Shown in pieces: positions 11,869-32,000 of a stretch of DNA of 32,000 bases. The stretch covers positions 1,290,001-1,322,000 of the forward strand of contig NC_017459.1 in assembly GCF_000237865.1 (NCBI RefSeq), given 5' to 3'. The stretch's first letter is position 1. Each line of letters opens with the position of its first letter. Source of the DNA: Haloquadratum walsbyi C23. Lineage in GTDB: Archaea > Halobacteriota > Halobacteria > Halobacteriales > Haloferacaceae. The position numbers and the translations under genes were made by a program. The notes beneath the pieces were generated by a model. The model made no database searches. It saw nothing but the letters and a program-made list of their open reading frames with translations, and was not told the DNA's origin.

Positions 11869-11876
11869 TTGTCTGA
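11869..11876. repeat. Target-site duplication, right copy (TTGTCTGA)
   Basis: See 10859-10866. Confidence 0.85.
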
Positions 11877-15237: not shown

Positions 15238-15307
15238 ATCCGACCATCTACTTTAATTTGTGCGTAAATTATCAGATACCACATAATAAATATCAATTTC
15301 TGGACTC

Positions 15308-17350
15308 TTATAACTGAAATTCACGCTTAATATCTTGCAATTTCAACCGAGCCCTTGTTTCATTGAGTGCAGTTTCGGCAAATTCTTCAAACCGTTCCAA
15401 TTCTCGTTCGAGAATCCCTCTCTCTGAGGCGCCAAGTTCAGAATCAGATTCCACAGCCGGGACGACTATCATATCATATATACTCGCTTTCTCTTTCCCA
15501 CTCTCTGGGTGCTGTCTTAATACCCGGCCTCGGCGCTGGACAAACTCCTTAGGATTACGATTATTTGCCATCAGGATGGCCTGCCGCGTGGAGGGCACAT
15601 CAACCCCTTCATCAAGACATTTCATCGCAACAAGAGCCTCATAACGTCCGTCTGCAAAGGCAGAGAGTAGTTTCTGACGTTCCTCGTCATCTTCCTCTGC
15701 TGTAAAACGATGTTGTACGATACCCCGGTTAGTCATTCGCTGTTGTACTTCATCTATTTGCTGGTAATTTGTATACACAAGAAGGTGGTCAATATCTATC
15801 TCATCAAGTATTTTCTCAATTTCACTATATTTTTGCTTTGCACTTTTCAGTATATTTGCTCGTTTTGTGAGCAACCTTTCCCGAGTTTCTTCGACTGTGT
15901 CATCATCGCTGTCGCCTAAACGTGCCAATTTATGTGAAATTTTCTTGTAGCGAGCGAGCTCTTCCCCATCCATCTCCACTATCCGTGGATAATACTCATA
16001 CGGTGTCAGATACTTTGGAATTGCATCGGCTAATGTATATTGAAAGACAATGTCATCAAAGTAGTTTGACAGAAATTCTGTCCCCTCTTCATCATAGTAA
16101 CGTTCAGGCGTCGCAGATAGCCCTAATCGATAATTAAACTGTGGAACTAAGCCCTTACGCCGAATCTCAGCACCGAGATTATGCACCTCATCAGCTATAA
16201 TGAGACTATCAAACGGGATTGATTTGAGTTGATTACGAAAGAAGTCTGTCGATCCGGTCTGATGGGTGGTAATAATTATTTCTCTATCTGTAAACCCTAA
16301 TTCCAAACCATCAATTGTTGTCTGTAGTGCTGACTTCCAATCAGAGCAGTGCGACCCATATAGTAATTTATATGAAGTATAGTCGAAATCATCTAAACTA
16401 TCTGCCCATTGCTTCGCCAGATGCGTCATAGGAACGGTTATAACGGCGAGCATTGGATCATCTTGATATTCATACTCTCGCAGTATATCACGCATAGCAC
16501 CAATAGCGGTGTATGTCTTTCCAGTCCCAGTGGCCATCTTGAAGAGACCGTGGCGGCCATTATTATGCCAGTTATTAACAGCAGTCTGCTGATAATCACG
16601 AAGTGATATTTTACTCACAGTATGATTGGTCTCTATATTATCCGGGGGTGTATATGGGCGTTCGTCTGTTGTTCTTAATTGCTTGATATCTTGCTCTATG
16701 CTCTCAGGAGGTGTAATAGTCGTTATATTTTTCTTCTCGTTATTCCATAAATCGTCAAATCGACGCTCATGAATGTCCACAGCCTCTGCTTCACGATTGC
16801 CCATCCAGTCACAGTCAATCGTGTATGCCTCATAATTCTCAAACGCGTGCTGGCTATCATTTTGAGATCCATGAAAAGCAATACGGTGACCTTCCGTATC
16901 CTGAGCAATTCCAAACTTGTCATGAAACTGACCACGCAGCGATCCATGAGGTATTGCAAATTTGAGTTCAAGGAGTCCATCAGCAATCATCCAAGCAACT
17001 GCGTTGCGAGTTTCGCTATGAAGTTCCTCCTCAAGGGAGCTTATTGATGATTCTAGTGCTGACTTTAATACTTCGTCAGAACGAGCAACTCCTCCCTTCT
17101 TGATTGCCTCCCAGTCTTTCTCTGAGAGGATTGGACTTGTAATCCATCTCGCAACACCTCCATTTTCGACGAGATTTATTACTCCCCGACTGGCTGACTC
17201 AAGCCATCCAGTTGTGAAGTAGCCAACTCCGCGCTTGTACTCGATGGCATGAGTAAGCATTGGAACATAAAACTCTGAGATAAAGTTGTTTTCTGAAGTC
17301 TCAATCACACGTGGCCAGTCGATACTGGAAAAATCAGCCGAAGGTGTCAT
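15308..17350 (-). CDS. Fusion protein: N-terminal single-HKD phospholipase-D-family nuclease domain + SF2 (ResIII/ERCC3-type DExH) helicase
   Basis: 680 aa. HKD motif is FHDKFGIAQDTEGHRIAFHGSQND (nt 16859-16924). Helicase motifs: I MATGTGKT, II IIADEVH, III LGLSATPER, VI QRRGRVLR. Confidence 0.9.
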   Translation of the reverse strand: MTPSADFSSIDWPRVIETSENNFISEFYVPMLTHAIEYKRGVGYFTTGWLESASRGVINLVENGGVARWITSPILSEKDWEAIKKGGVARSDEVLKSALESSISSLEEELHSETRNAVAWMIADGLLELKFAIPHGSLRGQFHDKFGIAQDTEGHRIAFHGSQNDSQHAFENYEAYTIDCDWMGNREAEAVDIHERRFDDLWNNEKKNITTITPPESIEQDIKQLRTTDERPYTPPDNIETNHTVSKISLRDYQQTAVNNWHNNGRHGLFKMATGTGKTYTAIGAMRDILREYEYQDDPMLAVITVPMTHLAKQWADSLDDFDYTSYKLLYGSHCSDWKSALQTTIDGLELGFTDREIIITTHQTGSTDFFRNQLKSIPFDSLIIADEVHNLGAEIRRKGLVPQFNYRLGLSATPERYYDEEGTEFLSNYFDDIVFQYTLADAIPKYLTPYEYYPRIVEMDGEELARYKKISHKLARLGDSDDDTVEETRERLLTKRANILKSAKQKYSEIEKILDEIDIDHLLVYTNYQQIDEVQQRMTNRGIVQHRFTAEEDDEERQKLLSAFADGRYEALVAMKCLDEGVDVPSTRQAILMANNRNPKEFVQRRGRVLRQHPESGKEKASIYDMIVVPAVESDSELGASERGILERELERFEEFAETALNETRARLKLQDIKREFQL

Positions 17351-17614: not shown

Positions 17615-20600
17615 ATGACACAACCAATGGGTGAGACTGATATTCCAACATTACAAGATGCATGGGATCCTCGAGAAGATGTTCTCCAGGGTAAAATTCG
17701 AGATGAGAGTCTTGCTGCTGATGCACACGAAGTTGCATATGGGAATAACGTGCCGGATGTATATGATGATACAGAGACGTTCTTCGATTTAACATATCCA
17801 ACATCTGGTGTCACGGGTGTTATCGAAGCGGTTGCTCAACGTGTGATTGCGCATTATCGTGGTGAGTTCCCGGAAGAAAATGGGACTATCACGCTTGACA
17901 CGTCATTTGGGGGAGGAAAGACGCACTCCCAAATTGCCGCATACCATCTTGCTGAACATAGTGACGAAATTCCTGATCTAACGCGATACACACAAAGTGA
18001 CGAAACAGCTCATGAGTATCGCGCTCTCGAAAATAATAAATCAGTACTGACGTCTGTTTTTGTCGGGACAAAGTACGCGCCGAAACCGGTCAAGCCAAAA
18101 CAAGTCCGGCAAGGCGAGCATACCCCAGAAATACAGACAATCTGGGGACATATCGCCTATCAATTGTATGGTGTTGAAGGATATCAGGTAGTGAGTAGTG
18201 GGAATAATCTCGTTGCTCCTGGTGAGCAGTTGCTCAGTAATCTGTTTTCACTGTCTGATGAGGCGGCTGTTATCATTATGGATGAGATTGCGGCTCACTT
18301 ATCTCACGCAACCGCTGTGTCTGTTAATGATGGAAATCTCGCAGAACAGACGCTCAATTTCTTGATGGCGCTGTTCAATTATGCGTCAAACAATAGTGAT
18401 GTGACGGTGATCATGAGTGTTGCAGCTGACGCATTCGAAGATTTCGCGACGATTTTCGAACGCGACCTTTCTTACGATGATGAGGTGATGGATGCCGATG
18501 TTTCCATCCCGATTGCAAAAGAGACCATTCAGGAATTTCAGAATATTGAGGAGCGTGTCGCGAATAAAATCACTCCGGTTGAGGACAGTAATGTTGCAGA
18601 CGTCCTGCGAAATCGGTTATTCAAAAATAACATCGAGACTGGATTGCGTGAGGATATCGCTCAACGATATTACGACTTCTATGATGCCGATAGTAGTTCA
18701 TTCCCAGATGAAGCCTCACAGCCGGAAGCACGCGAACGAATTGAGCAAACATATCCGTTTCACCCAACAGTCGTCGACACGCTAACGAAGCAGATTGATG
18801 CCGTTCCATCATTTCAGAAGGCTCGTGGAGCACTCAAGTTACTTGCCCCAGCCGTCATGCGATTATGGACTGATGAAGGTCAGGGTCCACTGACAGCAGA
18901 TCGTGAGCTGATTCGTCTGTATGATTTACATCCACAGGATGAGCGCACGAGCAAGATGCTGAAGAGTATCTTTGGTGATATTGAGATGGACTTTGAGCCT
19001 GCGGTGAAGGATGACATATACAATACGGATCCGAATGATACACCAAATGCCCTGTATGAGGATAAATATTGGATCAATCGAGGGCAGCCACCACTCGGAA
19101 CCCGAGTTGTAACGACGACAATTTGGAAATCACTCGTAAAAGGTGCAGGAAGCAAAGGAACGAGTCGTGATTACATTAGATACGCGAGCGCGAAGCCTGG
19201 TGAGACGATTGATCACTACAATAGCGCCATCGGGAATCTCCTTGGTGAGAGCGATGAGTCAGCATGTTTCTACTTACATGGTGAGAATAACCAACAATTG
19301 AAATTCAAGACGATTGTCACAGTCGAGAAAGCGATTAATCAGGCGAATCCGCGCACAAGTCGTGTTGATAATCTGCTTGATGAGACGTTATACAATGCCG
19401 CACTTGGTGGATCCTCAATGACAATCTATGAAAACCCACAGGCTGTGCATGAGGTTGACGATACGATTGAGACGCTCGGACAGCTTGTGGTTGTTGAGCC
19501 GTCGACACTCACGATTAGTGAGCCAGATGATATTACAGAAACTGTTGTCACAAAAATTTATGAGAGGTCCGCAAGCTCCAAGCACGGAAACAAGAAGCCG
19601 CGAACGTATAAGAACAATCTAATTTTTCTCGTGCCGGGTATCAGGATTTCGCGCGCTCGGAGCAAGGCAGGTCGCCTCGCTTCGGTTCGCGTTGTACAGG
19701 ATAATCCAGATGATTTTGGGTTGCAGGATGCGCAGTTAGATGAACTCCCAACAAAGCGAGATGAAGCGCGTGGTGATCTTGAGAACTTGGTTAAGAACGC
19801 GTATTCACATGTATATATCCCGAGCAATCCGTCGCCAGACCAACCACATGAAGGACTTGCACATTACAATATCACCGTTACTGACAGTACACTTATTAAC
19901 GCAGTTATCGCCAAATTGGAGGATTCTGGAGAAGTTATTACAAATAATGAGCCAGCGTACAGCCCGAACTGGTTAGAAAATAACCTCTGGATGGCTGTTG
20001 GCGATTCAATGACAACAGTTGAGCTGAAACAACAGATTGGAAAGCAGCGCAGTGCGGAGATATTGCTTGACCCGCGTCCACTACAGAAAACAATCAGGCG
20101 GGCTATTAGAGAGTCCGACAGCAAATTCGCCTACTGGAACCATCACCACGAGCGTGGGTATGTGGATCCAAGTGCATTTGAGGAAATATTTGATGAGCGT
20201 AATGAGACGGTCACATTCGATGAGGCGCATAATCTTGTCGCCGCAGAAGAGCTTGAGGACGTGGGTATTGACAGCTCAGAAGAAGTATATGAATCGACTG
20301 AAACGCTGATAGAGAGTGTCGCCGTTACATGGCAGTGCTCTGATTGTGGTGATTACTTGGACTCAACACGCGAGTATGCTGAGCACTCATGTCAGATAGA
20401 AATTGAGTGCGGACAATGTCCTGACACCTTCTCAACTCAACAAGAGTATGAACAGCACTTACCATGTGGTACAAATTACGACTGTAGTAACTGCGGGCGG
20501 ACGTTCAATACAGAAGAGTCACTCACCGAGCACCAACCGTGTCCATGGCCGCAAACAGTAGTAGGGAAGACGGATAGTCCAGCGGTTGTCACTGAAGCTG

Positions 20601-21067
20601 TCGATACGATTACCGCAGAGATTGAGGATAAGGTGACCCAAATCAAACACAACTTCAACAGTTCAACACATGAAATCAAGCAGTCATTGGACGGACTGAC
20701 TCTCAAACTACAGGGAGATGACGCGTGGAAGAAGGGTGAGTGGATTGCCAAACAGATGCCAGAGCAAGATGGACTTCAGAATGTTGCTGTCGAACTTGAG
20801 TATGAGGCACGATATGATGACAGTCATGTTGAGACTCACTTCGATGGTACTGGCAAAATGTTTGCAGACACACTCAAACATACAAACAAACCGAGTGGGT
20901 CACCAGATGATCAGTATATTGAAATCTTGATCAAGGCTGACACATCACTTGAATTAAATCGGCTTGATATTCTTGAGGATATTATCCCTGGTGCGACGAC
21001 TATCGAAATGAGTGTGAGAACAGCTCTTGAATTGACCGAAGATGAGAAACAAGAGATGACTCCATAA
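17615..21067 (+). CDS. DUF499-type P-loop ATPase (PbeA-like) with a C-terminal triple C2HC zinc-finger insert
   Basis: 1150 aa. The N-terminal pattern ...ESLAADAHEVAYGN..PDVYDD.ETFFDLTYPTSG... is followed by Walker A TSFGGGKTHS and Walker B AVIIMDEIAAH, which I recognise as typical of the DUF499 family. Three CxxC-x12-H-x(1-2)-C units lie at nt 20330-20542. Confidence 0.8.
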   Translation: MTQPMGETDIPTLQDAWDPREDVLQGKIRDESLAADAHEVAYGNNVPDVYDDTETFFDLTYPTSGVTGVIEAVAQRVIAHYRGEFPEENGTITLDTSFGGGKTHSQIAAYHLAEHSDEIPDLTRYTQSDETAHEYRALENNKSVLTSVFVGTKYAPKPVKPKQVRQGEHTPEIQTIWGHIAYQLYGVEGYQVVSSGNNLVAPGEQLLSNLFSLSDEAAVIIMDEIAAHLSHATAVSVNDGNLAEQTLNFLMALFNYASNNSDVTVIMSVAADAFEDFATIFERDLSYDDEVMDADVSIPIAKETIQEFQNIEERVANKITPVEDSNVADVLRNRLFKNNIETGLREDIAQRYYDFYDADSSSFPDEASQPEARERIEQTYPFHPTVVDTLTKQIDAVPSFQKARGALKLLAPAVMRLWTDEGQGPLTADRELIRLYDLHPQDERTSKMLKSIFGDIEMDFEPAVKDDIYNTDPNDTPNALYEDKYWINRGQPPLGTRVVTTTIWKSLVKGAGSKGTSRDYIRYASAKPGETIDHYNSAIGNLLGESDESACFYLHGENNQQLKFKTIVTVEKAINQANPRTSRVDNLLDETLYNAALGGSSMTIYENPQAVHEVDDTIETLGQLVVVEPSTLTISEPDDITETVVTKIYERSASSKHGNKKPRTYKNNLIFLVPGIRISRARSKAGRLASVRVVQDNPDDFGLQDAQLDELPTKRDEARGDLENLVKNAYSHVYIPSNPSPDQPHEGLAHYNITVTDSTLINAVIAKLEDSGEVITNNEPAYSPNWLENNLWMAVGDSMTTVELKQQIGKQRSAEILLDPRPLQKTIRRAIRESDSKFAYWNHHHERGYVDPSAFEEIFDERNETVTFDEAHNLVAAEELEDVGIDSSEEVYESTETLIESVAVTWQCSDCGDYLDSTREYAEHSCQIEIECGQCPDTFSTQQEYEQHLPCGTNYDCSNCGRTFNTEESLTEHQPCPWPQTVVGKTDSPAVVTEAVDTITAEIEDKVTQIKHNFNSSTHEIKQSLDGLTLKLQGDDAWKKGEWIAKQMPEQDGLQNVAVELEYEARYDDSHVETHFDGTGKMFADTLKHTNKPSGSPDDQYIEILIKADTSLELNRLDILEDIIPGATTIEMSVRTALELTEDEKQEMTP

Positions 21068-21071
21068 CTGC

Positions 21072-21698
21072 ATGAGCGGAACACAATACAATTCAGAGCC
21101 ATTCGCATTTACTGCAGGTCGATATGGTGATCGACCGGTTTTCATATTGACACGGCGGTGGAAGCAGAAAGGACCAGAGGTGACACTGTATGAGCTTGCG
21201 CCAGATAATATCGCACAGACGCGTAGGGAGCGATTTGATGATATGTCATCGTCGGCAAGTCTGACAATTCACGAACTCCCTGATATCATCGCAGACGGTC
21301 AGACACCGAATGATATCAAAAGTGGTCACGGTGACGGGACACATGACTGGTCGAACTGGCAAGCGTTGAAGATTGTAACGCTCGGTGGTGAACGAAACAA
21401 GATCGCGATTAGTTCGCTTGTGAGACCAGTACTCACTTCTGGGGAATATGATACGGATTCGGTCTGTGTCGGGAGTGACGGCTCGCTTGCAGTATCAGAG
21501 TCGGTCGGCATTCGGTTGTCAATTGGATTTCGAGCGTTGCGCCCAGTCAGAAAGCAGAATCGACTTCAGGCGATTGCTGATGGGGTGAGTAATATGACAC
21601 TTGGTGAGTGTTACTATTGGCATGCCAAAATGCGGTCGCCAACGGTTCCGAGTGGTGCAAAGGCACTTCGAATACTTCTCAGTAGTCACATTAACTGA
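21072..21698 (+). CDS. Small conserved-slot protein (position of DUF3780/PbeB in DUF499-DUF1156-helicase clusters)
   Basis: 208 aa. Starts 4 nt after the upstream stop and ends 2 nt before the next ATG. I recognise no motif, so the assignment rests on gene order only. Confidence 0.5.
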   Translation: MSGTQYNSEPFAFTAGRYGDRPVFILTRRWKQKGPEVTLYELAPDNIAQTRRERFDDMSSSASLTIHELPDIIADGQTPNDIKSGHGDGTHDWSNWQALKIVTLGGERNKIAISSLVRPVLTSGEYDTDSVCVGSDGSLAVSESVGIRLSIGFRALRPVRKQNRLQAIADGVSNMTLGECYYWHAKMRSPTVPSGAKALRILLSSHIN

Positions 21699-21700
21699 TC

Positions 21701-24553
21701 ATGGCATACGATACCTCAGACACAGAGAGTACCGAAAGGGAAACACAACAAGCAAAAGATACTGTTCCAAGCACGGTTGCGATTGAAGATGACTTGCCAC
21801 TCATGGCAATTGATATTGAAAATGAAAAGGATATCATGGCAAACCGAGGGCACGCCAGCAGGAGGTTTTCAAAATGGTTTGCCGCCCGACCAATCCCAGC
21901 TGTGCGACTTGCAATACTCGGGTCTGTATATCCAGAACGTCAGATAACTGATGACGAACTACTAAAATTAATGCAGATTGGACCTAGCGAAATTGACTCA
22001 AATATAGCTCAGTATGTGAGACAAAAATACACCGAAGAGAAGGATAGATACGATACATTAGACGATCATTATAATTATCCGAACCCAAATAGCCAGACCC
22101 CCTCTAAATCCCAGATTAAAGAAAATAAACAACATGTCAAAGAGTACTGGGGTGGAGAGTTGCCTACAATTCTTGATCCAACCGCTGGTCGAGGAACAAT
22201 TCCATTTGAGGCGATGCGATACGGACTACCAGCGATATCAAATGAGCTTGATCCGGTCCCATTTACTATTAGTAAGATTACATTAGAGCTTGCACCAGAG
22301 GTCGGGTCTGTTGCTGAATCATATGATCGTTGGACAAAGGAGATAATTGAACGGACGAAAGACAGAATCAGTCAGTATTATCCAACAAAGGAATCTGGTC
22401 GTCAGATACTGAATTATGCGATGACGTATATCATTGATTGTGACTCCTGTATGGGGCGACTCCCGTTAATAAACAATTGGCGATTGAATGACGATGCAGC
22501 CGGTGGAGACGTGATTACGCCAACATATCAGGATGGGAATGTATCATACAACCATGCACGGAGAGAAGAGACACCAGAGTTTGACCCGTCAGATGCACCT
22601 GTCGCCCGTGGTGGAGACGCTGAATGTCCACACTGTGGTGTTACAACAGATGCAGCACGAATCAGAGAAAAATTCCAAAATAATGAGTTTGAGTACAGTG
22701 TCTTTGGGGTCAGTTATGAGAGTGAGACTGGCGAATATGAATATCGTGCCGGCGATGAAATAGATCTTAGAGGCATAAACAAAGCCAGTGAGCGTATTGA
22801 GTCTGATTTTGAGTTGATGGACTTCTTTGTTGAAGAATACGCTCCGAAACAGTGTGATAGAGTAAAAAACTATGGGATAGATCAGTGGCGAGACTTATTC
22901 ACACCGCGGCAGCTGGTCACTCATTACGAGCTATTTGAAGTAATTAATGAAGTAAAGAATGGAATACGTGAATCATATGCGAGTAAAAAAGCAAAGCTGA
23001 TTATTACGCTGATAACACAGGCAATTAATCAGCAGGTTCTATTTAATAATAGACTAGCTAAGTGGTTTCCTCAACATGGAACTGGTCATGAGACATTTGC
23101 TAGTCAGAGTTACAGTATGAAGAGAATGTTTGTTGATAATAACATAGTAGCTGAAAGGAAGGGTTTAAAAAGACGGTTTAAACATGTAATTGATAATTAT
23201 GAGGACTTAGCATCTCAAGTATCCCAAGTAGATTCAGACATTGATATTTATAATACTGATGCGACCTCCTTATCTGGGGAAGTAAGCGCCAATGCTGTTC
23301 AGGTTGCAGTCATCGATCCACCATATTTTGATAGTGTTATGTATGGTGAACTATCTGATTTCATGATGATCAGTCATAGAGAAGTGCTTGATGACATATT
23401 TCCTGACGCGATGCAGAATCTAAGCAACGACGAGCAGATGGTTGTCAACAATGTCCGGCATGATAACCCAGAAGAATTCTATGAATCAATGATGCGGGAC
23501 ATGTTTGCAGAATTGGGAGAGATTCTCGTTGAAAATGGTATATTGACGCTCATGTTCACCGACAGAGAGACGAAAGCATGGAATACAATTCTGAAGACGC
23601 TTATTCAGTCTGACTTTACAATCACTGCCGCACACCCAATCAAGACAGAGGCGAGCGACAAAGCCGGTATGCACGACAAAGCCCGTGTTGAAAGTTCTAT
23701 CTTTGTTACAGCACGCAACACGCCAAATGAAACAGATACGTCTGAATGGAGGGAGATAAGAGATACCATTGAGTCTATCGCTCGGAAGGAAGCACAGCGG
23801 CTACTCTCTGTTGAGACTATCAGTAAAATAGATACATCAATCGAAGCATTTGGAGCTGCACTGGAAGCGTACTCAGATGCATATCCAGTTGAGGATAAGT
23901 ACGGTGACACGGTCTATCCGGGTCAGGTGCTCACGACAGTTCGAAACGAGGTATACAGTGTCATTGCAAACGATGAGTTGTCAACCAAGACTGACCGACT
24001 GGATGGTGTTTCGCGATGGTACATCCTTGCCAATGTCCTCTATGATGATGCTGATATTCCATTTGATGAGGCGAATCAGCTTGGTATCGGTGCCGATATT
24101 GATATCAACGAGATCAAGAGACCAACAAAAATTTGGTCAAAATCAGGCGGTAATGTAAGTCTGAACAATCACAGTGATCGTGTACAAGATATTGTTAAGC
24201 TGCGCGATAACAGTGCTGACAATCCATCAACCCGAAAGTACCCCGTTAATCCGACGGCTGACAGCTTCACATACACGATTGACGCTGTTCATGCTGCACT
24301 CCATATATATAAACAAGAAGGACAGAGAGCAACTCGCGACTGGCTCGCACAGCGTGAATTCAAGAGTAATCAGCAATTTAAAAAAGCAATCAAAGCGCTA
24401 CTTGAGGCGGTGCCTGTGGACAGTCGAACGCGAGAGATACTTCAAGATCTCACCGCTGGTGAAACAGGTGATTATCTTGATATTAGTGTCGAAGAGCTCA
24501 GTATTGGTAATTCGAGCAGTGCTAGGCAGAGCGGTATTGAGGAGTATAAGTAA
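21701..24553 (+). CDS. DUF1156-type Zn-ribbon-containing N6-adenine (DPPY) DNA methyltransferase (PbeC-like / DrmMI-like)
   Basis: 950 aa. N-terminal DUF1156-like signature FSKWFAARPIPAVRLAIL. SAM-binding motif I is ILDPTAGRGTIPFEA. Cys pairs CDSC (aa 246-249) and CPHC (aa 309-312) form the Zn ribbon. Catalytic motif IV is VIDPPYFDSV (DPPY at nt 23315-23326). Confidence 0.85.
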   Translation: MAYDTSDTESTERETQQAKDTVPSTVAIEDDLPLMAIDIENEKDIMANRGHASRRFSKWFAARPIPAVRLAILGSVYPERQITDDELLKLMQIGPSEIDSNIAQYVRQKYTEEKDRYDTLDDHYNYPNPNSQTPSKSQIKENKQHVKEYWGGELPTILDPTAGRGTIPFEAMRYGLPAISNELDPVPFTISKITLELAPEVGSVAESYDRWTKEIIERTKDRISQYYPTKESGRQILNYAMTYIIDCDSCMGRLPLINNWRLNDDAAGGDVITPTYQDGNVSYNHARREETPEFDPSDAPVARGGDAECPHCGVTTDAARIREKFQNNEFEYSVFGVSYESETGEYEYRAGDEIDLRGINKASERIESDFELMDFFVEEYAPKQCDRVKNYGIDQWRDLFTPRQLVTHYELFEVINEVKNGIRESYASKKAKLIITLITQAINQQVLFNNRLAKWFPQHGTGHETFASQSYSMKRMFVDNNIVAERKGLKRRFKHVIDNYEDLASQVSQVDSDIDIYNTDATSLSGEVSANAVQVAVIDPPYFDSVMYGELSDFMMISHREVLDDIFPDAMQNLSNDEQMVVNNVRHDNPEEFYESMMRDMFAELGEILVENGILTLMFTDRETKAWNTILKTLIQSDFTITAAHPIKTEASDKAGMHDKARVESSIFVTARNTPNETDTSEWREIRDTIESIARKEAQRLLSVETISKIDTSIEAFGAALEAYSDAYPVEDKYGDTVYPGQVLTTVRNEVYSVIANDELSTKTDRLDGVSRWYILANVLYDDADIPFDEANQLGIGADIDINEIKRPTKIWSKSGGNVSLNNHSDRVQDIVKLRDNSADNPSTRKYPVNPTADSFTYTIDAVHAALHIYKQEGQRATRDWLAQREFKSNQQFKKAIKALLEAVPVDSRTREILQDLTAGETGDYLDISVEELSIGNSSSARQSGIEEYK

Positions 24554-24570
24554 TCAAGAGTGTATTGCTC

Positions 24571-27500
24571 ATGTTTAGCAACAATAGTTGGCAGTTAACA
24601 TATGAAAGCGGAACTGACGATTTATTCACAGATTTTTATGAGCCATTTTTATCTGAGGCAGAACAGTACAATCGTATTGCTGGGTATTTGAGCCTCCGGG
24701 GGCTTGCAGCAGCGCTTGAAGGTGTTGACTCGATGCTTGAGACAGACGGTGAAATTCGTGTGATTACTGGCGCTGACCTGCAACAGCGCGAGAGAGAATA
24801 TCTGTTAACCGATACCGAGGGCACGTTCCCTAACTGGACAAAATCTCAGTTAGCCATCATCGCCGAACTATTTGATCGAGGTGACTTGTCAATCAAAGTT
24901 GCTGATGTCTCACAGCAGACTGGTATGTTTCATTCAAAACTTGGGATTGGGGTTGACGCGAATGATGATGTGCTCACTTTCGAAGGAAGCATCAATGAAA
25001 CACCGAACGGGTGGTTGCGGAGTTATGAGCGGTTCAAAATACACCGATCGTGGAAGTATGTCGAGAGAGAATATGTCGAACGTGATCGGGAGACATTCGA
25101 TATGTTGTGGAACGATAACCACTCATATGTTGATGTGTATGAGTTGAGCGAAGCTGACAAACAAGATATTGCGAGTTGGCAACCCGACGGCGGGCAACAA
25201 CTGCAGAAAGCAAGGGAAACTGTTCGTGAGGGACGACCAGAGAATGCCCCATCAGAATGGGAGCTAGCACGTGCACTATCTGTGAACGGTCAAACTCCAG
25301 GAGGATTGCATCTCGCTGAGGATGTGAGTACAATCACGCCATGGCCACACCAACGGTCGATTTCAGATACTGTTGTGAGCCATTATCCGAGCAATTTCAT
25401 TTTGAGTGATGAGGTTGGACTCGGCAAGACGATTGAGGTCGGGCTGACGCTCTCACGATTAATCCAGACCGGCGATGTTGAGACTGCACTCTTACTTGTT
25501 CCAGCCAGTCTTATGGAACAGTGGCAGCGCGAATTACGTGACAAATTCAATCTGAACGCCTATCGATTCGAGCGACAGAGCGGATATCCTGTCGTTACCG
25601 GGTCATATGGAGATGGAAGCAGCAGTACTGTGACGCTCAGTGGTGATGTGACAGCCTCCGACTGGTCTGATACACCAATTGGTGGGTTTGTTGACAAGCG
25701 TGATCGTCCGACTATTATCATCCAATCGTGGCACCGTGCCCGCATGACTGGTAATCAACAGCATGTCGCCCCACAAACAGACGAGACAGTCTGGGATGCG
25801 ACAGTTGTCGATGAAGCGCATAACGCACGGAATCCGGACACGAAATTTTACAAACTGCTGGGGGATGTGCGAGACAGTTCACGAGCATTGTATGCACTTT
25901 CTGCAACCCCGATGCAGGTTCGGATTGAGGAGTTGCATGACATACTTCGATTGACCGAATTGCCTGATTCTTGGGATGACCGCAAACAGTTGGCGAATTT
26001 CTTCCGAACAAAAATGATCCTCCGTGAGACATTAGCCGAAGGCAGAATTGGCGATTCGTTTGGCGATATTGAGCGAGAGATTGAACGAACGTTCCAGCGA
26101 AAGTATGCAGACCGATTTGACGAATCAAGACACAGTCATATTGAAAATGACCTCTCACTCGAAGTAGTCAGAGCACGATTTGAGCAGTTCGCAAGAATGA
26201 TTGCCGATCACGCCGCGTCATATCCGGGCTACACTGACTATATTGACCAACTTGCTGATACTATTGAGACTGATGAAGGCATGCGAGTACGGTTCTCACT
26301 GCGCAAGCAATTGAAGCGATTGATTGATTCTGATGAGCGTCGGTTTGTTGATGATCCTGCGGAGATTCTGTATGATCTCGACGACAAACTCGGGTGGAGA
26401 CTTGTCGTTCGGATGTCCGAAGATATGAATCCAGTTCAGTCGCGTATGTTTCGAAACACTCGGGAGGTGTTACGCGATGCGAAAGAGGACGGACGTCTAG
26501 ACGCGACAGTGCCACGTCGTGATGTTTCGACAGAGCATGTCCCGCTTGATAATGAGATAGAAGAGTTATTTGACGAGATCGAATCATACATCAAAAACAC
26601 GTATCAGCGGTCGACAGAAGTGCTTGATGACCAGCAGAAAGCCGCTCTTGGATTTGTGATGACAATCTATCGCAAGCGATTAGCGAGCAGTTTTGCGGCT
26701 ATTCAGAGCACATTACGGAGCCGATACAATTCACTTGGTGACAAACTCCCTGATGATGCTGACGAGCTTGAGTCACAAGTACGGGGGAGTGAGGCATCAG
26801 AAGCTGACGTGAGGGCGATTGTGGATGACGAAACAATCAATCAGTATCAGGTGAGTAAACGAAAGATCATACAGTACGAGCAGTCCCAAATTGAGCAGTT
26901 TATTACGAAACTCCGATCACAAAAGACCGATCCGAAGGTAAGCAAGTTATCGAGCGCGATTGATGAATATCGCGAGGAGGGATATCACGATATCGTTATT
27001 TTCACACAGTATACTGACACGATGGATGATATCGCAAATGAGCTGAAGTTGCTCAACGATGTTGGCATATTCAGTGGTGATGGCGGAAGCGTGTACAGAA
27101 ATCACGAGTGGGTTGACGTCGGAAAAGAAGGAGTCAAAAAATCATTTGCAGATGACGACGGAATTGGGATTTTGGTCTGCACAGATAGTGCAAGTGAGGG
27201 ACTCAACCTTCAGACAGGCGAGCTACTGATCAATTATGATCTGCCGTGGAATCCGATGCAGGTTGAGCAACGAATCGGTCGGATTGATCGAATCGGGCAG
27301 GAAAATGAGGTGGTGAAGATTGTGAATTATGCGTACGAAGATGAGATTGACGCTCAAATATATGAGAGTCTTGATGATAAACTCGATATTTTTGATCAGG
27401 TCGTCGGTGATACGCGACCTGTGCTTGCCGGAATCGAGTCCGAAATTCGCGATATCGCACTGAAAGAGGATACAGAAACGATTGAGCAACTGACTAAGGA

Positions 27501-28197
27501 AAAAGCACGGGATGCTGATGAGATGAGCAATACGATGGCCGCTGTTGGACTCACGGATGTTGAGTATGATACGGAAGCTGCACTTGTTGGATGGGGCGAG
27601 CGGACGCATTCAGCACTTAACAGAATTGGAAGCGATGCCAGACGGTTTGATCCGGTGTTGACGCCGTCTATTGTTGAGTATCTATTTACCCAAAGTTCGT
27701 CACTCGAAACTGCTGGTTGGTCGTTTCAGAGCCTGAGGAATCATGAGCGTGGGCATGAGTTTCCTGAGGCAGTACGTGAGGCATATCTGCTGTCAATTCC
27801 TGATGAGTCAGAGGTTGATTATCTGTTGAATCAGCAGGTTGACTCGGACGAGCAAACCGCACAGGAGGTGTTTGCTGAGCAGGATGCTCTTGTCGTGACG
27901 TTCTCAACAGAACTTGTGAATGAGCGTGGTTCATTGCGGTTGTTATTACCAGGTGATCCGTTGTTCGCACATCTCCTCCAGATAATCGACGATAATCAGG
28001 CGATGGCTGAGGAGAATGTGACGCTCATTTCATCCAATGAGATAGATGAGAAATTGGAGACCAATCGGATATGTGATGTGCAGGAACTAATCGCACCAGT
28101 GATTAATAATCGGAATCTAACGCCAATGGATATCAATTGTTATGAAAATGAGAAATCAGCAAAGGAAGCTGTGAAGAGGTTTGTATATCTAGACTGA
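24571..28197 (+). CDS. Fusion protein: N-terminal single-HKD PLD-family domain + SNF2-family helicase (PbeD-like; DrmC+DrmD-like content)
   Basis: HKD motif MFHSKLGIGVD...FEGSINE (H codon at 24931-24933). SNF2 motifs: LSDEVGLGKTIE, LLLVPASLMEQW, VVDEAHNARN, LYALSATPMQ, VCTDSASEGLNLQ, DLPWNPMQVEQRIGRIDRIGQ. The track ORF starts at TTG 24565; ATG 24571 (MFSNNSWQ) is preferred. Confidence 0.9.
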   Translation: MFSNNSWQLTYESGTDDLFTDFYEPFLSEAEQYNRIAGYLSLRGLAAALEGVDSMLETDGEIRVITGADLQQREREYLLTDTEGTFPNWTKSQLAIIAELFDRGDLSIKVADVSQQTGMFHSKLGIGVDANDDVLTFEGSINETPNGWLRSYERFKIHRSWKYVEREYVERDRETFDMLWNDNHSYVDVYELSEADKQDIASWQPDGGQQLQKARETVREGRPENAPSEWELARALSVNGQTPGGLHLAEDVSTITPWPHQRSISDTVVSHYPSNFILSDEVGLGKTIEVGLTLSRLIQTGDVETALLLVPASLMEQWQRELRDKFNLNAYRFERQSGYPVVTGSYGDGSSSTVTLSGDVTASDWSDTPIGGFVDKRDRPTIIIQSWHRARMTGNQQHVAPQTDETVWDATVVDEAHNARNPDTKFYKLLGDVRDSSRALYALSATPMQVRIEELHDILRLTELPDSWDDRKQLANFFRTKMILRETLAEGRIGDSFGDIEREIERTFQRKYADRFDESRHSHIENDLSLEVVRARFEQFARMIADHAASYPGYTDYIDQLADTIETDEGMRVRFSLRKQLKRLIDSDERRFVDDPAEILYDLDDKLGWRLVVRMSEDMNPVQSRMFRNTREVLRDAKEDGRLDATVPRRDVSTEHVPLDNEIEELFDEIESYIKNTYQRSTEVLDDQQKAALGFVMTIYRKRLASSFAAIQSTLRSRYNSLGDKLPDDADELESQVRGSEASEADVRAIVDDETINQYQVSKRKIIQYEQSQIEQFITKLRSQKTDPKVSKLSSAIDEYREEGYHDIVIFTQYTDTMDDIANELKLLNDVGIFSGDGGSVYRNHEWVDVGKEGVKKSFADDDGIGILVCTDSASEGLNLQTGELLINYDLPWNPMQVEQRIGRIDRIGQENEVVKIVNYAYEDEIDAQIYESLDDKLDIFDQVVGDTRPVLAGIESEIRDIALKEDTETIEQLTKEKARDADEMSNTMAAVGLTDVEYDTEAALVGWGERTHSALNRIGSDARRFDPVLTPSIVEYLFTQSSSLETAGWSFQSLRNHERGHEFPEAVREAYLLSIPDESEVDYLLNQQVDSDEQTAQEVFAEQDALVVTFSTELVNERGSLRLLLPGDPLFAHLLQIIDDNQAMAEENVTLISSNEIDEKLETNRICDVQELIAPVINNRNLTPMDINCYENEKSAKEAVKRFVYLD

Positions 28198-28296
28198 ATT
28201 CATAAAAATCCTATTCACTAAATGTAATCATAACAATAATTTTGATGCACACACCGAAAACCACCAGCAGAACTCAGTGTCCAGAATTTGTCGTTA

Positions 28297-30129
28297 CTAC
28301 TGATCACTGAATCCTGCAATAGTCTCATCGTCAAACTCGCCGCCAAAGTACACGGATCGACTGAGATTATTATTAGAATTCGCGCAGGTAATGTTCGAAA
28401 GAAAGAGGCAATCCTCGCACGAGCCATTGTGATCGCGTCGGCAGACAGAATCATACGTGCAAAATGCACTTTCTTCCAATTGATTGAGCACCTCTGGAAA
28501 ACGCTCTTCAAACAGGGAGAAGATTGAGCCTAGTGTAAAGTTCGTGTCCGGCCGCTTGTAGATAATGAAACTCATAGCTCTTGGAAGTATATGCTCAACG
28601 AGACTATCGCGCCCATATCCAGAGAGTGCTCCAATCGAGTCAGTGAATAGGTGTGAGAGGGTGTGAAGTAGTGTGAATGCGTGTCGAGCGGGTGTTCGTT
28701 CCGCTGGAAGAGAGTCAAAACGGTTTGGAGCAGTCATCTTCTCAATGAACCAACGGTCGAGATTGTTGACAGTTGTTGACTGAACAATATTGTTAGAGAA
28801 GAGCCAATCTAACACTGCCTGCTTGTCGAGCGAGATCATAACTGCCTCCGCGTCCATCGTCCGAGCGAAAATTTGCGTCTCTGCCCACTGCCCACTAGAG
28901 AATGCATTTAATCGCGGTCCCATTTCGTCCTCAGTGTCGCCACCTGGAATTGGCGTCCCTCGAGTATATCCATATGTAACGGTCGTCACGGGGAAATTTT
29001 TAATCAGCCGAATTTCCGAAAGGTTCTGATTAGAACGAAGATCTGTATAATATTCAAGTTCATCTTCTGAGAGATGACTTTTTGTATCGACATCTTCGAG
29101 TAGTGAACTGAATGTGTATGTCTCAATACGGTCATTGTCATCGTATTCATCGCTGGTCACCGACAAATACTCAAAAAGCTCTTCGCTGAGACGCAGTCTC
29201 TTCGTCTTGTCGAACTCCGCCTGTAAGAACTGTTTTACTTCACTACGATGATCAGTCGCATCTGTAGTAAGCCGCTCTTTGGCCAGCTCAAGCGCGTGTT
29301 CCCGGTTTGATGCCTCATCATTCGCCATTAATTTCATAGCCTCCTGCAACAGTTCATCCTCGCTTGGACTGTCATTACCGCTGTTACGGAGTAAATAATC
29401 AGATATAATCTGCGCCTGATACTCCTGATTATCCTGTAGTGCATTCAATTTCTGATGAGCGTTAATCAGCGTCTGCGTCTGTGGATAGAATGTGCTGGAT
29501 GCTGAGTGAGGGAGCGTTTTGATATCTTCCATATCACAGCTAGGACTGAAACAAGTTGATCCTCCATTGAACCGGGTCGTGTACGAGCAACTAGAATTTG
29601 TACACCGCCAATATGCGTCCTCGAATCGGACAGTTGGGTTTCGATACTCCATTCCTGCGCCACAATGCTCTGGCACGTATATATCCTGAATGCCCCCACA
29701 TCGACAGTACGAAATCATACGCATTTGATCTCGGTCAGAAAGACCAGTTCCACACCGCTCACATGGGACTGTCGTTTCGGCATCCGGGAAATCACGTATC
29801 TCTGTTGGAGTGAACTGGTTTACAGTTCCACAGTTTGCGCATTTGAAACTTCTTGGGAATACCTCAAAATTCGCAGCCCCCGGCGTGACAACTTCCGCAG
29901 TCTCAAATCCAAAGTCAAGTTGGCTACTATTATACCATCGATTTACATGTCGTTGCACACGTCTGATGATATATTCATCCGGCAACTCATCGGCAGCTGC
30001 ATTCCCTGAATCGTCTCTGTCCTCATGAAGCCGCGTAATCATACCACTCAAGTCAGATTCAGAGTGATTGAATGTATTCTCTGGAAGAAAGTCGAAAATA
30101 AACTTTGATTTTGAACGTTCCATCGTCAT
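28297..30129 (-). CDS. DUF1998-domain protein (DrmB-like) with several N-terminal zinc ribbons
   Basis: 610 aa. The C-terminal DUF1998-type module runs HTLSHLF...SFIIYKRPDTN...CTYDSVCRRDHNGSCEDCLFLSNITCANSNNNLSRS. The N-terminal half contains CANCG...CERCG and further Cys clusters. The ATG overlaps the upstream helicase stop (ATGA, 30126-30129). Confidence 0.8.
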   Translation of the reverse strand: MTMERSKSKFIFDFLPENTFNHSESDLSGMITRLHEDRDDSGNAAADELPDEYIIRRVQRHVNRWYNSSQLDFGFETAEVVTPGAANFEVFPRSFKCANCGTVNQFTPTEIRDFPDAETTVPCERCGTGLSDRDQMRMISYCRCGGIQDIYVPEHCGAGMEYRNPTVRFEDAYWRCTNSSCSYTTRFNGGSTCFSPSCDMEDIKTLPHSASSTFYPQTQTLINAHQKLNALQDNQEYQAQIISDYLLRNSGNDSPSEDELLQEAMKLMANDEASNREHALELAKERLTTDATDHRSEVKQFLQAEFDKTKRLRLSEELFEYLSVTSDEYDDNDRIETYTFSSLLEDVDTKSHLSEDELEYYTDLRSNQNLSEIRLIKNFPVTTVTYGYTRGTPIPGGDTEDEMGPRLNAFSSGQWAETQIFARTMDAEAVMISLDKQAVLDWLFSNNIVQSTTVNNLDRWFIEKMTAPNRFDSLPAERTPARHAFTLLHTLSHLFTDSIGALSGYGRDSLVEHILPRAMSFIIYKRPDTNFTLGSIFSLFEERFPEVLNQLEESAFCTYDSVCRRDHNGSCEDCLFLSNITCANSNNNLSRSVYFGGEFDDETIAGFSDQ

Positions 30130-32000
30130 CGCCCATCATCCCCTTTGAATAACGCATCGATGAATGGTTGATTATTAAATTGCGGGGTAATTGACCCTGA
30201 ATTACCGATATCCCGAAGGCTTACCATCGGCTTTTCATCACGGGGAAACTCCGGATAGTTCATTGATGGAAGATTCTGTTCCCAGTACCGCCAAAGATTA
30301 TTTAATTTTGTATCTAGCTGTGAGGTGAAATATCGCGTCTCGGTCGTTTGCTCATCAACCCCGAAGGCGCTACGAAGTAATATTTTCATGTTCTGCTTTG
30401 TGAAATCAGAATAATTGTTGCTAGTCATGAGCTTATACAAATGGCTTGCTTTCTGTACATTGGCACGGACTTGCTTCGTGTCCTTGGTTACAGTTTCTGA
30501 TCGCCACATCGTCGGGCGATAGTGCTGTATAAGCAGTGCATTAGCGACACCGACGAATGTCCGTTCGATACCGAATTTTGCCCAGCGGTCAATTGGGACA
30601 GGTTCGACTGCTCGGTCAAGATATTCATGCATTTTCTCGAAAAACCGGTATCGGTGCATATCCCGCTCTTCGAGTGGATTAAATGCATTAAATACGAACC
30701 CCGTGACCCCTGATTGGCGACCAACCCGGCTGCTAGACTGGATATATTGGAACGTCTGCGCCGGTAATCCGTAGAACATCATCATATTGAACCTATTAAC
30801 ATCGATTCCATGACCAATGAAGCTAGTTGACGGGACAGTATCTACCCGATTCTCAAATGGAATATCACCCTGATTCTCAAGTGTTTCAAGAAGATCCGAA
30901 TCTTCTGTATCCGCAGTCAACTGTCGTTCAACTATCGAATTTTCATATCCATTCTCCATCATCTTCGGGTTCGTATGCTTCGCAATATTTTCCCGATAAC
31001 GATCCTTCTCAACCTTATTAGTAAAGTAAATTACACTTAGCTCATACAAATCAAGGAGTTCACGCTTTTTCGATTTAGTTAATGAATCAAGTCCAACTCT
31101 ATCTGCGAGTTCCTCAGAAGACAATTCACGTGCATCTCGAATAAGTTCGTGATAATTCTGAATAGTGTCTAGAATCGAATACAGATGAGATCGGTTGTCA
31201 GGCATAAACCCAACATACTCTCGCTGAATCGTATCCGTAAGGTGACCATAGAACGTTTCCCGGCGTTTCGGCCCATCGACTGGGAATCTGACTGCTTCTT
31301 TTTGGAAGAGGTTCTGCATCTGCCGCTCGTACTTGGCAATTGTGGCAGTAGATGTGAGGATTTTCGGCTCCTTTCCATGAATCTCGTCGCAAAGCGTCAG
31401 ATAAAGTGTCTCATAATGTGATGAGAACGTCCCCAGTTCCTCACTTAGCAGATGAACCTCATCGATGAGATGTAGCGTGGGAACTGGGTCATACAGCTCA
31501 TTTGGGTCTACCTCACGCAGATTTTCTGAGTCGACATCACAGTGTGCGTGCTCAGAGCACTTACCAGAGTAGCCGTATCCATGAATCGGGCATTCTGTGG
31601 TAAGATTTCCCAGTATGTTCGCGAACCGCGGTTGCATACCAGAGACAACTATCTTATCCAGTGAACCTAGCAGTACGGACGGGACATATCGGTAAATATC
31701 ACGATCAACGACATAGAGCGGCAGTTGACCAATACAGCTATCGCCAGTACAGTGATGAAAGACACTATTCTTCTCTTTATCAAATTCCACCCTAACGTCG
31801 CTCTGGCAAAGCGGGCATGTTTCTACAACCTGGCACTCCTCCTCTAATCGCTGTTGACTTTCTGAGAAGGCCTCTCGGTACCGATCTCGACTTGTTCCAA
31901 TAGCGTTTGGTGTATCGTGACTGCCAACGTAGAATCCTAACGAGAACGGCTCGCCACGACTATCCAATCCGAGGTTATTGTTTGCCTGACGTATCTCCTC
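30126..32000 (-). CDS. DExH helicase, DrmA-like partner of the DUF1998 protein (5'-partial; N-terminus lies beyond the window)
   Basis: The frame stays open to nt 32000 (...EEIRQANNNLGL precedes the TTG that the track calls Met). Motif II is LIDEVHLL, III is LTSTATI, VI is QSSSRVGRQSG. Zn clusters are CPLCQS...HHCTGDSC and CPIHGYGYSGKCSEHAHC. LLGSLDKIV sits where DrmA-type helicases carry their TVDKFA-like motif (from memory). Confidence 0.78.
   Translation of the reverse strand, partial: EEIRQANNNLGLDSRGEPFSLGFYVGSHDTPNAIGTSRDRYREAFSESQQRLEEECQVVETCPLCQSDVRVEFDKEKNSVFHHCTGDSCIGQLPLYVVDRDIYRYVPSVLLGSLDKIVVSGMQPRFANILGNLTTECPIHGYGYSGKCSEHAHCDVDSENLREVDPNELYDPVPTLHLIDEVHLLSEELGTFSSHYETLYLTLCDEIHGKEPKILTSTATIAKYERQMQNLFQKEAVRFPVDGPKRRETFYGHLTDTIQREYVGFMPDNRSHLYSILDTIQNYHELIRDARELSSEELADRVGLDSLTKSKKRELLDLYELSVIYFTNKVEKDRYRENIAKHTNPKMMENGYENSIVERQLTADTEDSDLLETLENQGDIPFENRVDTVPSTSFIGHGIDVNRFNMMMFYGLPAQTFQYIQSSSRVGRQSGVTGFVFNAFNPLEERDMHRYRFFEKMHEYLDRAVEPVPIDRWAKFGIERTFVGVANALLIQHYRPTMWRSETVTKDTKQVRANVQKASHLYKLMTSNNYSDFTKQNMKILLRSAFGVDEQTTETRYFTSQLDTKLNNLWRYWEQNLPSMNYPEFPRDEKPMVSLRDIGNSGSITPQFNNQPFIDALFKGDDGR

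Follow-up and report, generated by a model that had tools for sequence, protein, structure and literature searches.

A probable drmE-drmA-drmB DISARM core, with neither drmC nor drmMII found beside it, meets an independent Hma operon in Haloquadratum walsbyi C23

At one end of the window (the whole 32,000-nucleotide stretch of Haloquadratum walsbyi C23 DNA that was analysed), two genes lie on the minus strand: drmB, which is complete (28297..30129; 610 aa from an ATG start, 608 aa from an alternative start), and the 3' part of drmA (30126..32000), which encodes residues 547-1170 of a 1170-aa SF2 (DExH) helicase. The start of drmB overlaps the stop of drmA in an ATGA that was read directly at 30126-30129. 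The drmA open reading frame was called at 30126-31967 (minus strand) and is open to the window edge; the window thus encodes the C-terminal 624 of the 1170 residues, the truncation that the earlier note had pointed out, and the Walker A motif and the N-terminal half of the protein lie beyond the edge. The full-length product (1170 aa) is encoded in two contigs, L001 and L036 (the latter from HBSQ001), at 99-100% identity.

The DrmA translation contains motif II DEVH (HLIDEVHLL), motif III TAT (TSTATIA) and motif VI QxxxSRVGR (Q..SSSRVGRQ), together with two Cys/His clusters, CPLC...HHCTGDSC and CPIHGYGYSGKCSEHAHC, that are invariant across five relatives. The PADLOC DrmA model matches the window fragment with an E-value of 2.7e-83 and the full-length protein from L001 with 4.5e-127, and among PDB sequences the sole match is 7s9v_A (DrmA; 2.6e-64), in a profile alignment that spans the helicase core only (query 372-1012 vs. 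chain 481-1190), the N-terminal region being unaligned. The NCBIfam DrmAS score is 223 bits, under the curated cut-off of 950, for a query that is a fragment of a divergent archaeal member. Judged from its sequence, the protein is an SF2 helicase of the DrmA family, and the DExH helicase with DEVH, TAT, a Q..R.GR motif and zinc clusters that had been described from the letters is borne out.

The drmB product combines a Zn-ribbon-rich N-terminal region with a C-terminal DUF1998-like module of four invariant Cys (C557, C563, C571 and C574), in keeping with the ATGA-coupled 610-aa protein ending in a four-Cys module that was previously proposed. It matches the PADLOC DrmB model (3.8e-30); its profile has a sole match among PDB sequences, 7s9v_B (DrmB; 1.3e-17, with the four Cys aligned); and its AF2 model (pLDDT 72.6) has 7s9v_B as the only significant fold match (E 1.3e-11, prob 1.0), with a weak second match to the DUF1998 protein MrfA (E 0.09). 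The PADLOC, PDB and fold matches to DrmB favour an assignment to DUF1998, but Pfam DUF1998/MZB (PF09369) itself does not match the window protein and gives weak matches in 2 of the 14 family members. The NCBIfam DrmB_fam score is 84 bits, under the curated cut-off of 240. The window protein corresponds to the C23 DrmB entry CCC40145.1, which falls in the same 90% cluster, and in its 608-aa form it has an exact match in the collection; the cluster comprises 52 members from many assemblies. Two components of the DISARM core are present, with DrmB beside DrmA, ATGA-coupled to it and recognised by PADLOC, PDB profile and fold matches, and the two assignments are far beyond chance.

Directly upstream of drmA, outside the window, both L001 (a 99%-identical contig) and HBSQ001 carry drmE, a 722-aa gene whose product matches PF24955, PF24957 and the PADLOC DrmE model (7.2e-12) and whose reading frame overlaps that of drmA. 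Extending the sequence upstream, as the earlier note had advised, thus recovered DrmE through near-identical contigs, and because this missing upstream gene is DrmE, the class 2 component, the helicase/DUF1998 pair is the end of a three-gene drmE-drmA-drmB operon, a class-2-type DISARM core. No DrmC-type ORF (PLD, PF13091) follows drmB in the window, L001 or HBSQ001; PLD domains occur only as the N-termini of HmaA and PbeA, i.e. in other operons. No DrmMII (C5 methylase, PF00145) was detected in the 32-kb window by tblastn with haloarchaeal DrmMII, nor in HBSQ001 over the 4.3 kb that precede drmE and the 10 kb that follow drmB; those upstream 4.3 kb of HBSQ001 also contain neither of the partners, a methylase or a PLD protein, that the pair might have owned there. 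As for class 1, the operon contains no DrmD, the sole SNF2 protein (24571-28197) being encoded on the opposite strand in the convergent Hma operon, and the methylase at 21701-24553 gives no DrmMI/PF13659 (N6-adenine methylase) match. Thus, no methylase or nuclease dedicated to DrmEAB was found adjoining the triad in H. walsbyi.

The operon facing drmB lies entirely on the plus strand. It consists of HmaC (17615..21067), an AAA+ ATPase of the DUF499 family that carries C2H2 zinc fingers at its C-terminus (PADLOC HmaC 2.6e-78, Pfam DUF499 3.5e-26); a DUF7680 gene (21072..21698; Pfam PF24728, 2e-29); HmaB (21701..24553), a DUF1156-type DNA methyltransferase (PADLOC HmaB 2.5e-48, NCBIfam DUF1156_antiphage) that also matches the DUF1156_MTase and PglX models; and HmaA (24571..28197), an N-terminal PLD domain fused to an SNF2 helicase (PADLOC HmaA 9.7e-55) and an exact match to CCC40144.1. 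This bears out the first description of a PLD fused to SNF2, a methylase of DUF1156 type and a DUF499 ATPase. HmaA displays the PLD motifs H123-S-K and GSINE and the SNF2 motifs GLGKT285, DEAH416, SAT446 and QRIGRIDR902; its best PADLOC match is DrmD (3.2e-63), covering the helicase part only, and its NCBIfam DrmD score is 226 bits, under the cut-off of 610. Besides HmaB, tblastn with C5 and N6_N4 methylase queries detected no second methyltransferase in the 32-kb window.

Hma (HmaA helicase, HmaB methylase, HmaC ATPase; alias DUF499/DUF1156/PLD-helicase triad) is a known three-gene system, found in 26 phyla and defined by the three genes on one strand with at most three embedded genes (PMC8565338; bioRxiv 10.1101/2024.01.29.577857). 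The order HmaC-(DUF7680)-HmaB-HmaA at 17615-28197 agrees with this definition, one extra internal gene being common for Hma. The haloarchaeal subtype is marked by conservation of the DUF7680 gene and by an HmaA of PLD-SNF2 type with DrmD as its best PADLOC match: the closest operons, on plasmids of Haloferax gibbonsii and Halorussus limi, have the identical four-gene set at 46-47% identity (46% for the HmaA orthologues, in the same operon on the two plasmids), and L037 and L038 have the DUF7680 gene at the corresponding place, with 46-48% identity. No DrmEAB was found near these operons on either plasmid. Hma is thus a complete, self-contained system, separate from DrmEAB.

The name Pbe, which had been applied to 21701-28197, belongs to other genes of the window: PbeA (15308-17350, minus strand; PADLOC 4.6e-224) and PbeC (13070-15040, minus strand; PADLOC 4.6e-234), both full-length. 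HmaA resembles the PbeA models in its PLD N-terminus only. The Pbe genes (13070..17350) share a strain-variable segment with Hma, and the HBSQ001 versions are 50-54% identical and in the opposite orientation; there, a PbeA-type helicase lies ~7-9 kb downstream, 54% identical to a C23 homologue whose N-terminus is PLD-like.

The two operons converge on a spacer of 99 nt (28198..28296), the HmaA stop ending at 28197 and the DrmB stop starting at 28297, exactly the distance given previously. By blastn, the reverse-complemented window matches HBSQ001 (L036, 8130-11884) over positions 1-3755 with 98.5% identity and shows no match beyond; homology between C23 and HBSQ001 thus stops at ~nt 28246, inside the spacer and ~50 nt from either stop, and L001 is collinear with HBSQ001 to the same breakpoint. 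At the DrmEAB locus of HBSQ001, the triad is kept and Hma is absent. DrmE, DrmA and DrmB are intact, with 98.5% nucleotide identity and dN/dS of 0.13-0.22 between C23 and HBSQ001, and no ORF of the triad is disrupted in two isolates and one metagenome contig. Junctions of the C23 type are seen again in several environmental assemblies and in other H. walsbyi assemblies. The breakpoint falls within the published hypervariable island GI2/DV6, in which 21 indels or deletion-coupled insertions are interspersed with shared segments (PMC3119063). A strain-specific replacement has its border at ~nt 28246; the operons would have become neighbours when a strain-specific segment carrying Hma and Pbe was swapped in beside the conserved DrmEAB segment within GI2/DV6.

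For comparison, we assembled 17 non-redundant related DrmEAB loci from other haloarchaea. Hma was found at none of them (0/17), and the co-occurrence of DrmAB-like pairs with DUF499/DUF1156 clusters that had been suggested for examination is therefore not seen at these loci. The hybrid of Pbe and DISARM class 1 is not supported: the upstream gene is DrmE rather than DrmD or DrmMI, Hma is self-contained and missing from the HBSQ001 locus, and the two-strain comparison shows two unrelated operons meeting at an insertion border. The earlier note's other option, two independent systems back to back, is supported by the breakpoint in the spacer, the HBSQ001 triad without Hma and Hma alone on plasmids. 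The locus is an annotation trap: an SNF2 protein with DrmD as its best PADLOC match, a methylase, DrmA and DrmB within 11 kb would be read as class 1 by gene content alone. In our assessment, the region is probably the 3' two-thirds of the drmE-drmA-drmB operon of H. walsbyi C23, without drmC or drmMII and independent of Hma. What sets the locus apart is that DrmC and DrmMII are lacking in this haloarchaeal DrmEAB clade, H. walsbyi included.

The relatives have other neighbours. At 11 of the 17 loci, DrmEAB adjoins a UvrD/PD-(D/E)xK module, arranged in four ways; 10 carry N6_N4 methylases, and 16 have one and/or the other; neither is within reach of DrmEAB in H. walsbyi, both of whose loci are without the UvrD module. 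These associations might point to another, undescribed DISARM class, in which DrmC and DrmMII would be replaced by a dedicated AddAB-like UvrD/PD-(D/E)xK helicase-nuclease, N4/N6 methylases and a Mrr-type nuclease as the partners of DrmEAB, the H. walsbyi copies being encoded elsewhere in the genome. The module of the islands also forms a tier of its own (60-99% identity, vs. 42-44% for the tier found on many haloarchaeal main chromosomes), which favours this reading. However, in L040 the same module has BREX genes and an N6_N4 methylase as neighbours and so may be an independent system sharing islands; given also that it is absent from both H. walsbyi loci and that the 120 best matches listed for it include no H. 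walsbyi entry, we regard such a class as unlikely. Quite unlikely, in our estimate, is a broader interpretation, that the haloarchaeal DrmEAB clade represents a portable sensor/motor core which, having lost the methylase and nuclease it once had, works with any adjoining partner, mostly the UvrD module and N4/N6 methylases, and in C23 the Hma PLD-SNF2 protein and DUF1156 methylase; if true, it would be natural evidence for 'mix-and-match' DISARM and, in effect, a third DISARM class.

It is very unlikely that the two C23 operons form one DISARM-like system in which methylation by HmaB would mark self DNA for DrmEAB and the PLD domain of HmaA or PbeA would be borrowed as its nuclease. This proposal draws on HmaB as the sole methylase of the window, on the HxK and GSxN motifs of the HmaA PLD domain and the DrmD match of that protein, on the tight, recurring junction, on the PbeA-type helicase that HBSQ001 also has downstream, and on the suggestion of Bravo et al. 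that alternative nucleases of the PLD family may be recruited by DrmAB and that components may 'mix-and-match' (PMC9142583). Against it stand the purifying selection on the HBSQ001 triad without Hma, the strain breakpoint inside the spacer, the lack of Hma at all 17 related loci and of DrmEAB beside the closest Hma operons, the missing DrmMI match of HmaB and the DrmD score of HmaA under the NCBIfam cut-off; moreover, the operons are convergent and hence not co-transcribed. A facultative interaction may nevertheless occur, as HmaB is the only nearby methylase, the HmaA PLD is among the nearby PLDs and the junction recurs. Finally, a decaying remnant of a larger system, its methylases and helicase-nuclease or PLD partner lost and defence gone, would fit the genes that accompany 16 of the 17 relatives and the abundance of pseudogenes and indels reported for GI2/DV6 (PMC3119063) but is highly improbable given the intact ORFs under purifying selection, the conserved catalytic motifs and Zn ligands, the 52-member DrmB cluster and the dispensability of drmC in tested systems (PMC9142583; 10.1101/2021.12.28.474362).

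Taking the independent DrmEAB operon as the preferred reading, a mechanism can be proposed by analogy with Serratia DrmAB (PMC9142583) and Bacillus class 2 DISARM, bacterial proteins at 13-30% identity. DrmA, as the SF2 ATPase/helicase, and DrmB, as the DUF1998 'helicase allosteric relay', would form a heterodimer that loads onto the single-stranded 5' overhangs of viral DNA as it enters or replicates and translocates with ATP, blocking circularisation and replication; DrmE would be the required third subunit. Degradation of the target, if any, and sparing of self DNA would then proceed via structural discrimination or factors encoded elsewhere. In class 2, each of drmA, drmB and drmE is reported to be essential, whereas drmC can be dispensed with (10.1101/2021.12.28.474362); drmC is often absent from DISARM (PMC9142583; 10.1101/2021.12.28.474362), whereas loss of DrmMII was reported as deleterious in Bacillus class 2 (10.1101/2021.12.28.474362). 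The H. walsbyi triad, having no methylase linked to it, would either work by another mechanism or depend on a partner gene located elsewhere. A DrmEAB triad that is under purifying selection in the archaeon that dominates salterns, and beside which no methylase or nuclease of its own was found, in a clade that elsewhere is repeatedly linked to an AddAB-like helicase-nuclease, bears on the minimal needs of DISARM and on how self DNA is spared.

Among the closest known systems is DISARM class 2 (Bacillus paralicheniformis drmMII-drmE-drmA-drmB-drmC), with the same drmE-drmA-drmB order and overlapping or tightly spaced genes; the H. walsbyi operon differs in having neither drmC nor drmMII in it or nearby and no linked methylase found. 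The sister haloarchaeal loci L015 and L016, from Halobellus salinisoli and Haloferax volcanii, follow the canonical class 2 layout DrmMII-DrmE-DrmA-DrmB-DrmC, with identities of 44-47% for DrmA, 36-40% for DrmB and 26-30% for DrmE; compared to class 2, DrmA of the H. walsbyi type is ~80-150 aa shorter. DISARM class 1 (Serratia sp. SCBI; cryo-EM structures 7S9V and 7S9W) has the DrmA helicase core, the DrmB fold and the four-Cys DUF1998 module in common with it, whereas the window operon contains no drmD or drmMI, and the genes for SNF2 and methylase proteins close by are part of the convergent Hma operon. MrfA/YprA, Druantia DruE and Dpd likewise couple an SF2 helicase to a four-Cys Zn module; here, in contrast, the module is carried by a separate 610-aa protein with a DrmB-specific N-terminal architecture and a DrmE partner.

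The two minus-strand genes at the window edge encode the helicase DrmA and its partner DrmB. The drmB ORF (28297-30129, minus strand, ATG start) encodes 610 aa and its start shares ATGA at 30126-30129 with the drmA stop, whereas the 3' part of drmA is translated over 30126-31967 and stays open up to nt 32000; the plus-strand gene converging on drmB has its end at 28197, leaving 99 nt between the two stop codons. Catalytic and Zn-binding residues are conserved: the translated DrmA fragment carries the helicase motifs DEVH, TAT and QxxxSRVGR plus two Cys/His clusters, both invariant among relatives, and DrmB ends with four invariant cysteines (C557, C563, C571 and C574). All the features described here in the earlier note, from the DExH motifs, Zn clusters and four cysteines to the ATGA overlap, the length of 610 aa and the 99-nt spacer, are present. 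PADLOC models matched DrmA (2.7e-83) and DrmB (3.8e-30), and the top NCBIfam matches were the same two families, with scores under the curated cut-offs. The C23 DrmB entry CCC40145 belongs to the same cluster as the window DrmB.

In a profile search of the PDB, the sole matches of both families were the Serratia DrmAB cryo-EM chains 7s9v_A (2.6e-64) and 7s9v_B (1.3e-17); the DrmA alignment spans the helicase core only, and the 7s9v_B alignment covers the four-Cys DUF1998 region of DrmB. An AlphaFold2 model of DrmB (pLDDT 72.6, pTM 0.70, with low confidence for the C-terminal Zn module) retrieved 7s9v_B as the only significant fold match (E = 1.3e-11), followed by the DUF1998 helicase MrfA (E = 0.09). 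The profile check proposed for DUF1998 failed in its direct form, as Pfam PF09369 (DUF1998/MZB) did not match the window DrmB and matched weakly in 2 of 14 relatives. Thus, the DUF1998 assignment rests on homology to DrmB, with PDB profile and fold comparison in place of direct Pfam detection.

Sequence beyond the window edge was read from the second H. walsbyi strain, HBSQ001, and from L001, a 13-kb metagenome contig whose DrmB is 99% identical to that of the window (DNA 95.5% identical over the shared 8.4 kb). This extension recovered the N-terminal part of the helicase, the full DrmA being 1170 aa long in L001, and revealed an overlapping 722-aa gene preceding it, with Pfam DrmE_N and DrmE_C domains and a PADLOC match to DrmE (7e-12). 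Because DrmE lies directly before DrmA in L001, the operon is drmE-drmA-drmB (DrmEAB); in HBSQ001 the three proteins are likewise encoded, at 722, 1170 and 610 aa, respectively, and the 4.3 kb upstream of its drmE hold small genes only (PIN_2, DUF6997). DrmE is linked with class 2 DISARM and, by gene content, the operon is class-2-type DISARM. In Bacillus class 2, defence is lost once drmA, drmB or drmE is deleted but does not require drmC; losing drmMII is deleterious (10.1101/2021.12.28.474362).

The module that converges on drmB (17615-28197, plus strand) had been labelled Pbe-like, mistakenly: it matches Hma, a candidate defence system of three genes known from 26 phyla, frequently with extra internal genes (PMC8565338; 10.1101/2024.01.29.577857). 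The DUF499 ATPase, DUF1156-type methylase and PLD-SNF2 fusion noticed earlier were all found by model matches, as HmaC (17615-21067; 2.6e-78), HmaB (2.5e-48), the sole methylase in the 32-kb window, and HmaA (24571-28197; 9.7e-55, with NCBIfam 'phospholipD_antiphage' and PLD_Helicase), respectively. The three proteins match CCC40141, CCC40143 and CCC40144 exactly, which places the window in Haloquadratum walsbyi C23. Nominally, the top PADLOC match of HmaA is DrmD (3.2e-63), ahead of HmaA itself and covering the helicase part only, so that, with DrmA and DrmB adjoining, automated callers could misassemble 'DISARM class 1' here. The class 1 content claimed in the earlier note is not borne out: the gene upstream of drmA is drmE, and the convergent module is Hma, not DrmD/DrmMI.

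HmaB has its nearest homologues (47% identity) on two plasmids, pHG3 of Haloferax gibbonsii and one of Halorussus limi. Each lies in the identical four-gene operon, DUF499-DUF7680-DUF1156-helicase, and DrmEAB is absent within 12 kb of either. In the window, the DUF7680 gene (21072-21698, plus strand) lies between HmaC and HmaB, and its 46-48% identical counterparts occupy the same place in the two closest Hma operons (L037 11341-11958; L038 11342-11959); it seems to belong to this haloarchaeal Hma subtype as a conserved fourth gene, rather than being embedded at random. HmaC residues 931-974, near the C-terminus, gave C2H2-type zinc-finger matches under the Pfam cut-offs. The true Pbe module comprises PbeA (15308-17350, minus strand; PADLOC e-224), PbeC (13070-15040, minus strand; PADLOC e-234) and, downstream, two small genes that match no family; with the IS1595-family transposase that follows (10895-11779), the region spans 10895-17350. 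Genes for dnd-type modification were not seen in the window. Scanning the window for Rfam families and tandem repeats yielded nothing relevant. Over ~3.5 kb (5900-9440), no ORF exceeds 115 aa and neither Rfam matches nor notable repeats occur, in keeping with the low coding density of H. walsbyi.

We collected 40 loci and annotated them by blastp against reference proteins; scans gave 6 loci from genome contigs and 18 from metagenomes, so that the co-occurrence counts come from a small sample. Haloarchaeal DrmEAB loci fall into two clades, a distant one from Halobellus, Haloferax volcanii and metagenomes (DrmB 36-40% identical) and the H. walsbyi clade (DrmB 52-56% identical). In the latter, 17 loci from other genera were non-redundant and informative; none of them has Hma adjoining DrmEAB, and none has an adjoining DrmC-type PLD or C5 methylase. 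A UvrD-like/Cas4-like PD-(D/E)xK/UvrD+PD-(D/E)xK module was found at 11 of these loci, in four relative arrangements, and adjoining N6_N4 methylases, often a pair plus an Mrr_cat protein, at 10; one or both occur at 16 of the 17. Conceivably, the clade represents a distinct DISARM class that employs this AddAB-like module together with N4/N6 methylases, though we consider this unlikely. Neither H. walsbyi locus has the module or the clade's methylases within reach.

Three proteins make up this helicase-nuclease (UvrD) module: a degenerate UvrD-like one (~707 aa), a Cas4-like PD-(D/E)xK one (~300 aa) and a UvrD+PD-(D/E)xK one (~1160 aa) (L004 11958-18521; L012 9675-16217; L018 945-7481; L033 12369-18852; L039 17673-24227; L040 6959-13492). 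Its members form a tier of 60-99% identity, distinct from a second tier (42-44%) that many haloarchaea carry on their main chromosomes, so the module looks like an island-specific paralogue; no H. walsbyi copy was among the best 120 matches listed. It is not exclusive to DrmEAB, as it also adjoins BREX genes in L040, and hence its link with DrmEAB may reflect merely a shared island. One to three N6_N4 methyltransferase genes together with a ~508-aa Mrr_cat protein also recur beside the clade's DrmEAB (L004 1-3724; L010 1-3745; L018 15522-20827; L025 15515-20819; L026 9990-12799), and may constitute a restriction-modification system in their own right.

The locus lies within genomic island GI2/DV6, in which 21 indels or deletion-coupled insertions have been described among segments that the strains share (PMC3119063). 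Starting at its edge, the window matches HBSQ001 with 98.5% identity as far as ~nt 28246, where homology stops, ~50 nt beyond the drmB stop and ~50 nt before the hmaA stop. L001 has a junction of the C23 type, and its collinearity with HBSQ001 begins 849 bp upstream of drmE and extends to this breakpoint. Downstream of drmB, HBSQ001 has no Hma; a gap of ~1.7-1.8 kb with two small ORFs only (120 and 115 aa; 11884-13602 of the HBSQ001 locus, L036) leads to a Pbe-type cluster in the opposite orientation (13602-20480; PbeA 54% and PbeC 50% identical). An N6_N4 methylase past these Pbe genes was considered as a cognate of the DrmEAB-linked methylases and rejected as unrelated. DrmEAB is one shared segment of GI2/DV6, with Hma and Pbe together one replacement and, judging by the alignment, the C23 DrmEAB/Hma junction is a strain-specific replacement border. 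Between the strains, drmE, drmA and drmB contain no stop codons and evolve under purifying selection (dN/dS 0.13-0.22); therefore, the triad is kept by selection with or without Hma. The two are genetically independent.

A facultative chimera, in which DrmEAB would draw on HmaB and on the PLD domain of HmaA, is in line with the 'mix-and-match' proposal in the literature (PMC9142583), and the C23-type junction recurs across several assemblies; as a requirement, however, such sharing is contradicted by the HBSQ001 comparison and the missing co-occurrence at the 17 loci, and we regard it as improbable. That the triad is a dead remnant is likewise improbable, because the ORFs are intact and dN/dS is low. 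Two systems back to back, the other option in the earlier note, is the right reading, amended in that one is a class-2-type operon, its neighbour is Hma and their junction a strain-specific replacement border.

By analogy with the mechanism published for bacteria (PMC9142583), DrmA and DrmB of this class-2-type operon would form a heterodimer, in which 5'-overhang single-stranded DNA would displace a putative autoinhibitory trigger loop and the DUF1998 domain would relay the conformational change; ATP-driven translocation could then block viral DNA circularisation and replication, possibly with recruitment of a nuclease. The distant haloarchaeal clade has the canonical class 2 arrangement, DrmMII(C5)-DrmE-DrmA-DrmB-DrmC(PLD), whereas the H. 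walsbyi clade has DrmE-DrmA-DrmB; what is new here is limited to a haloarchaeal variant of DISARM that lacks DrmC and DrmMII.
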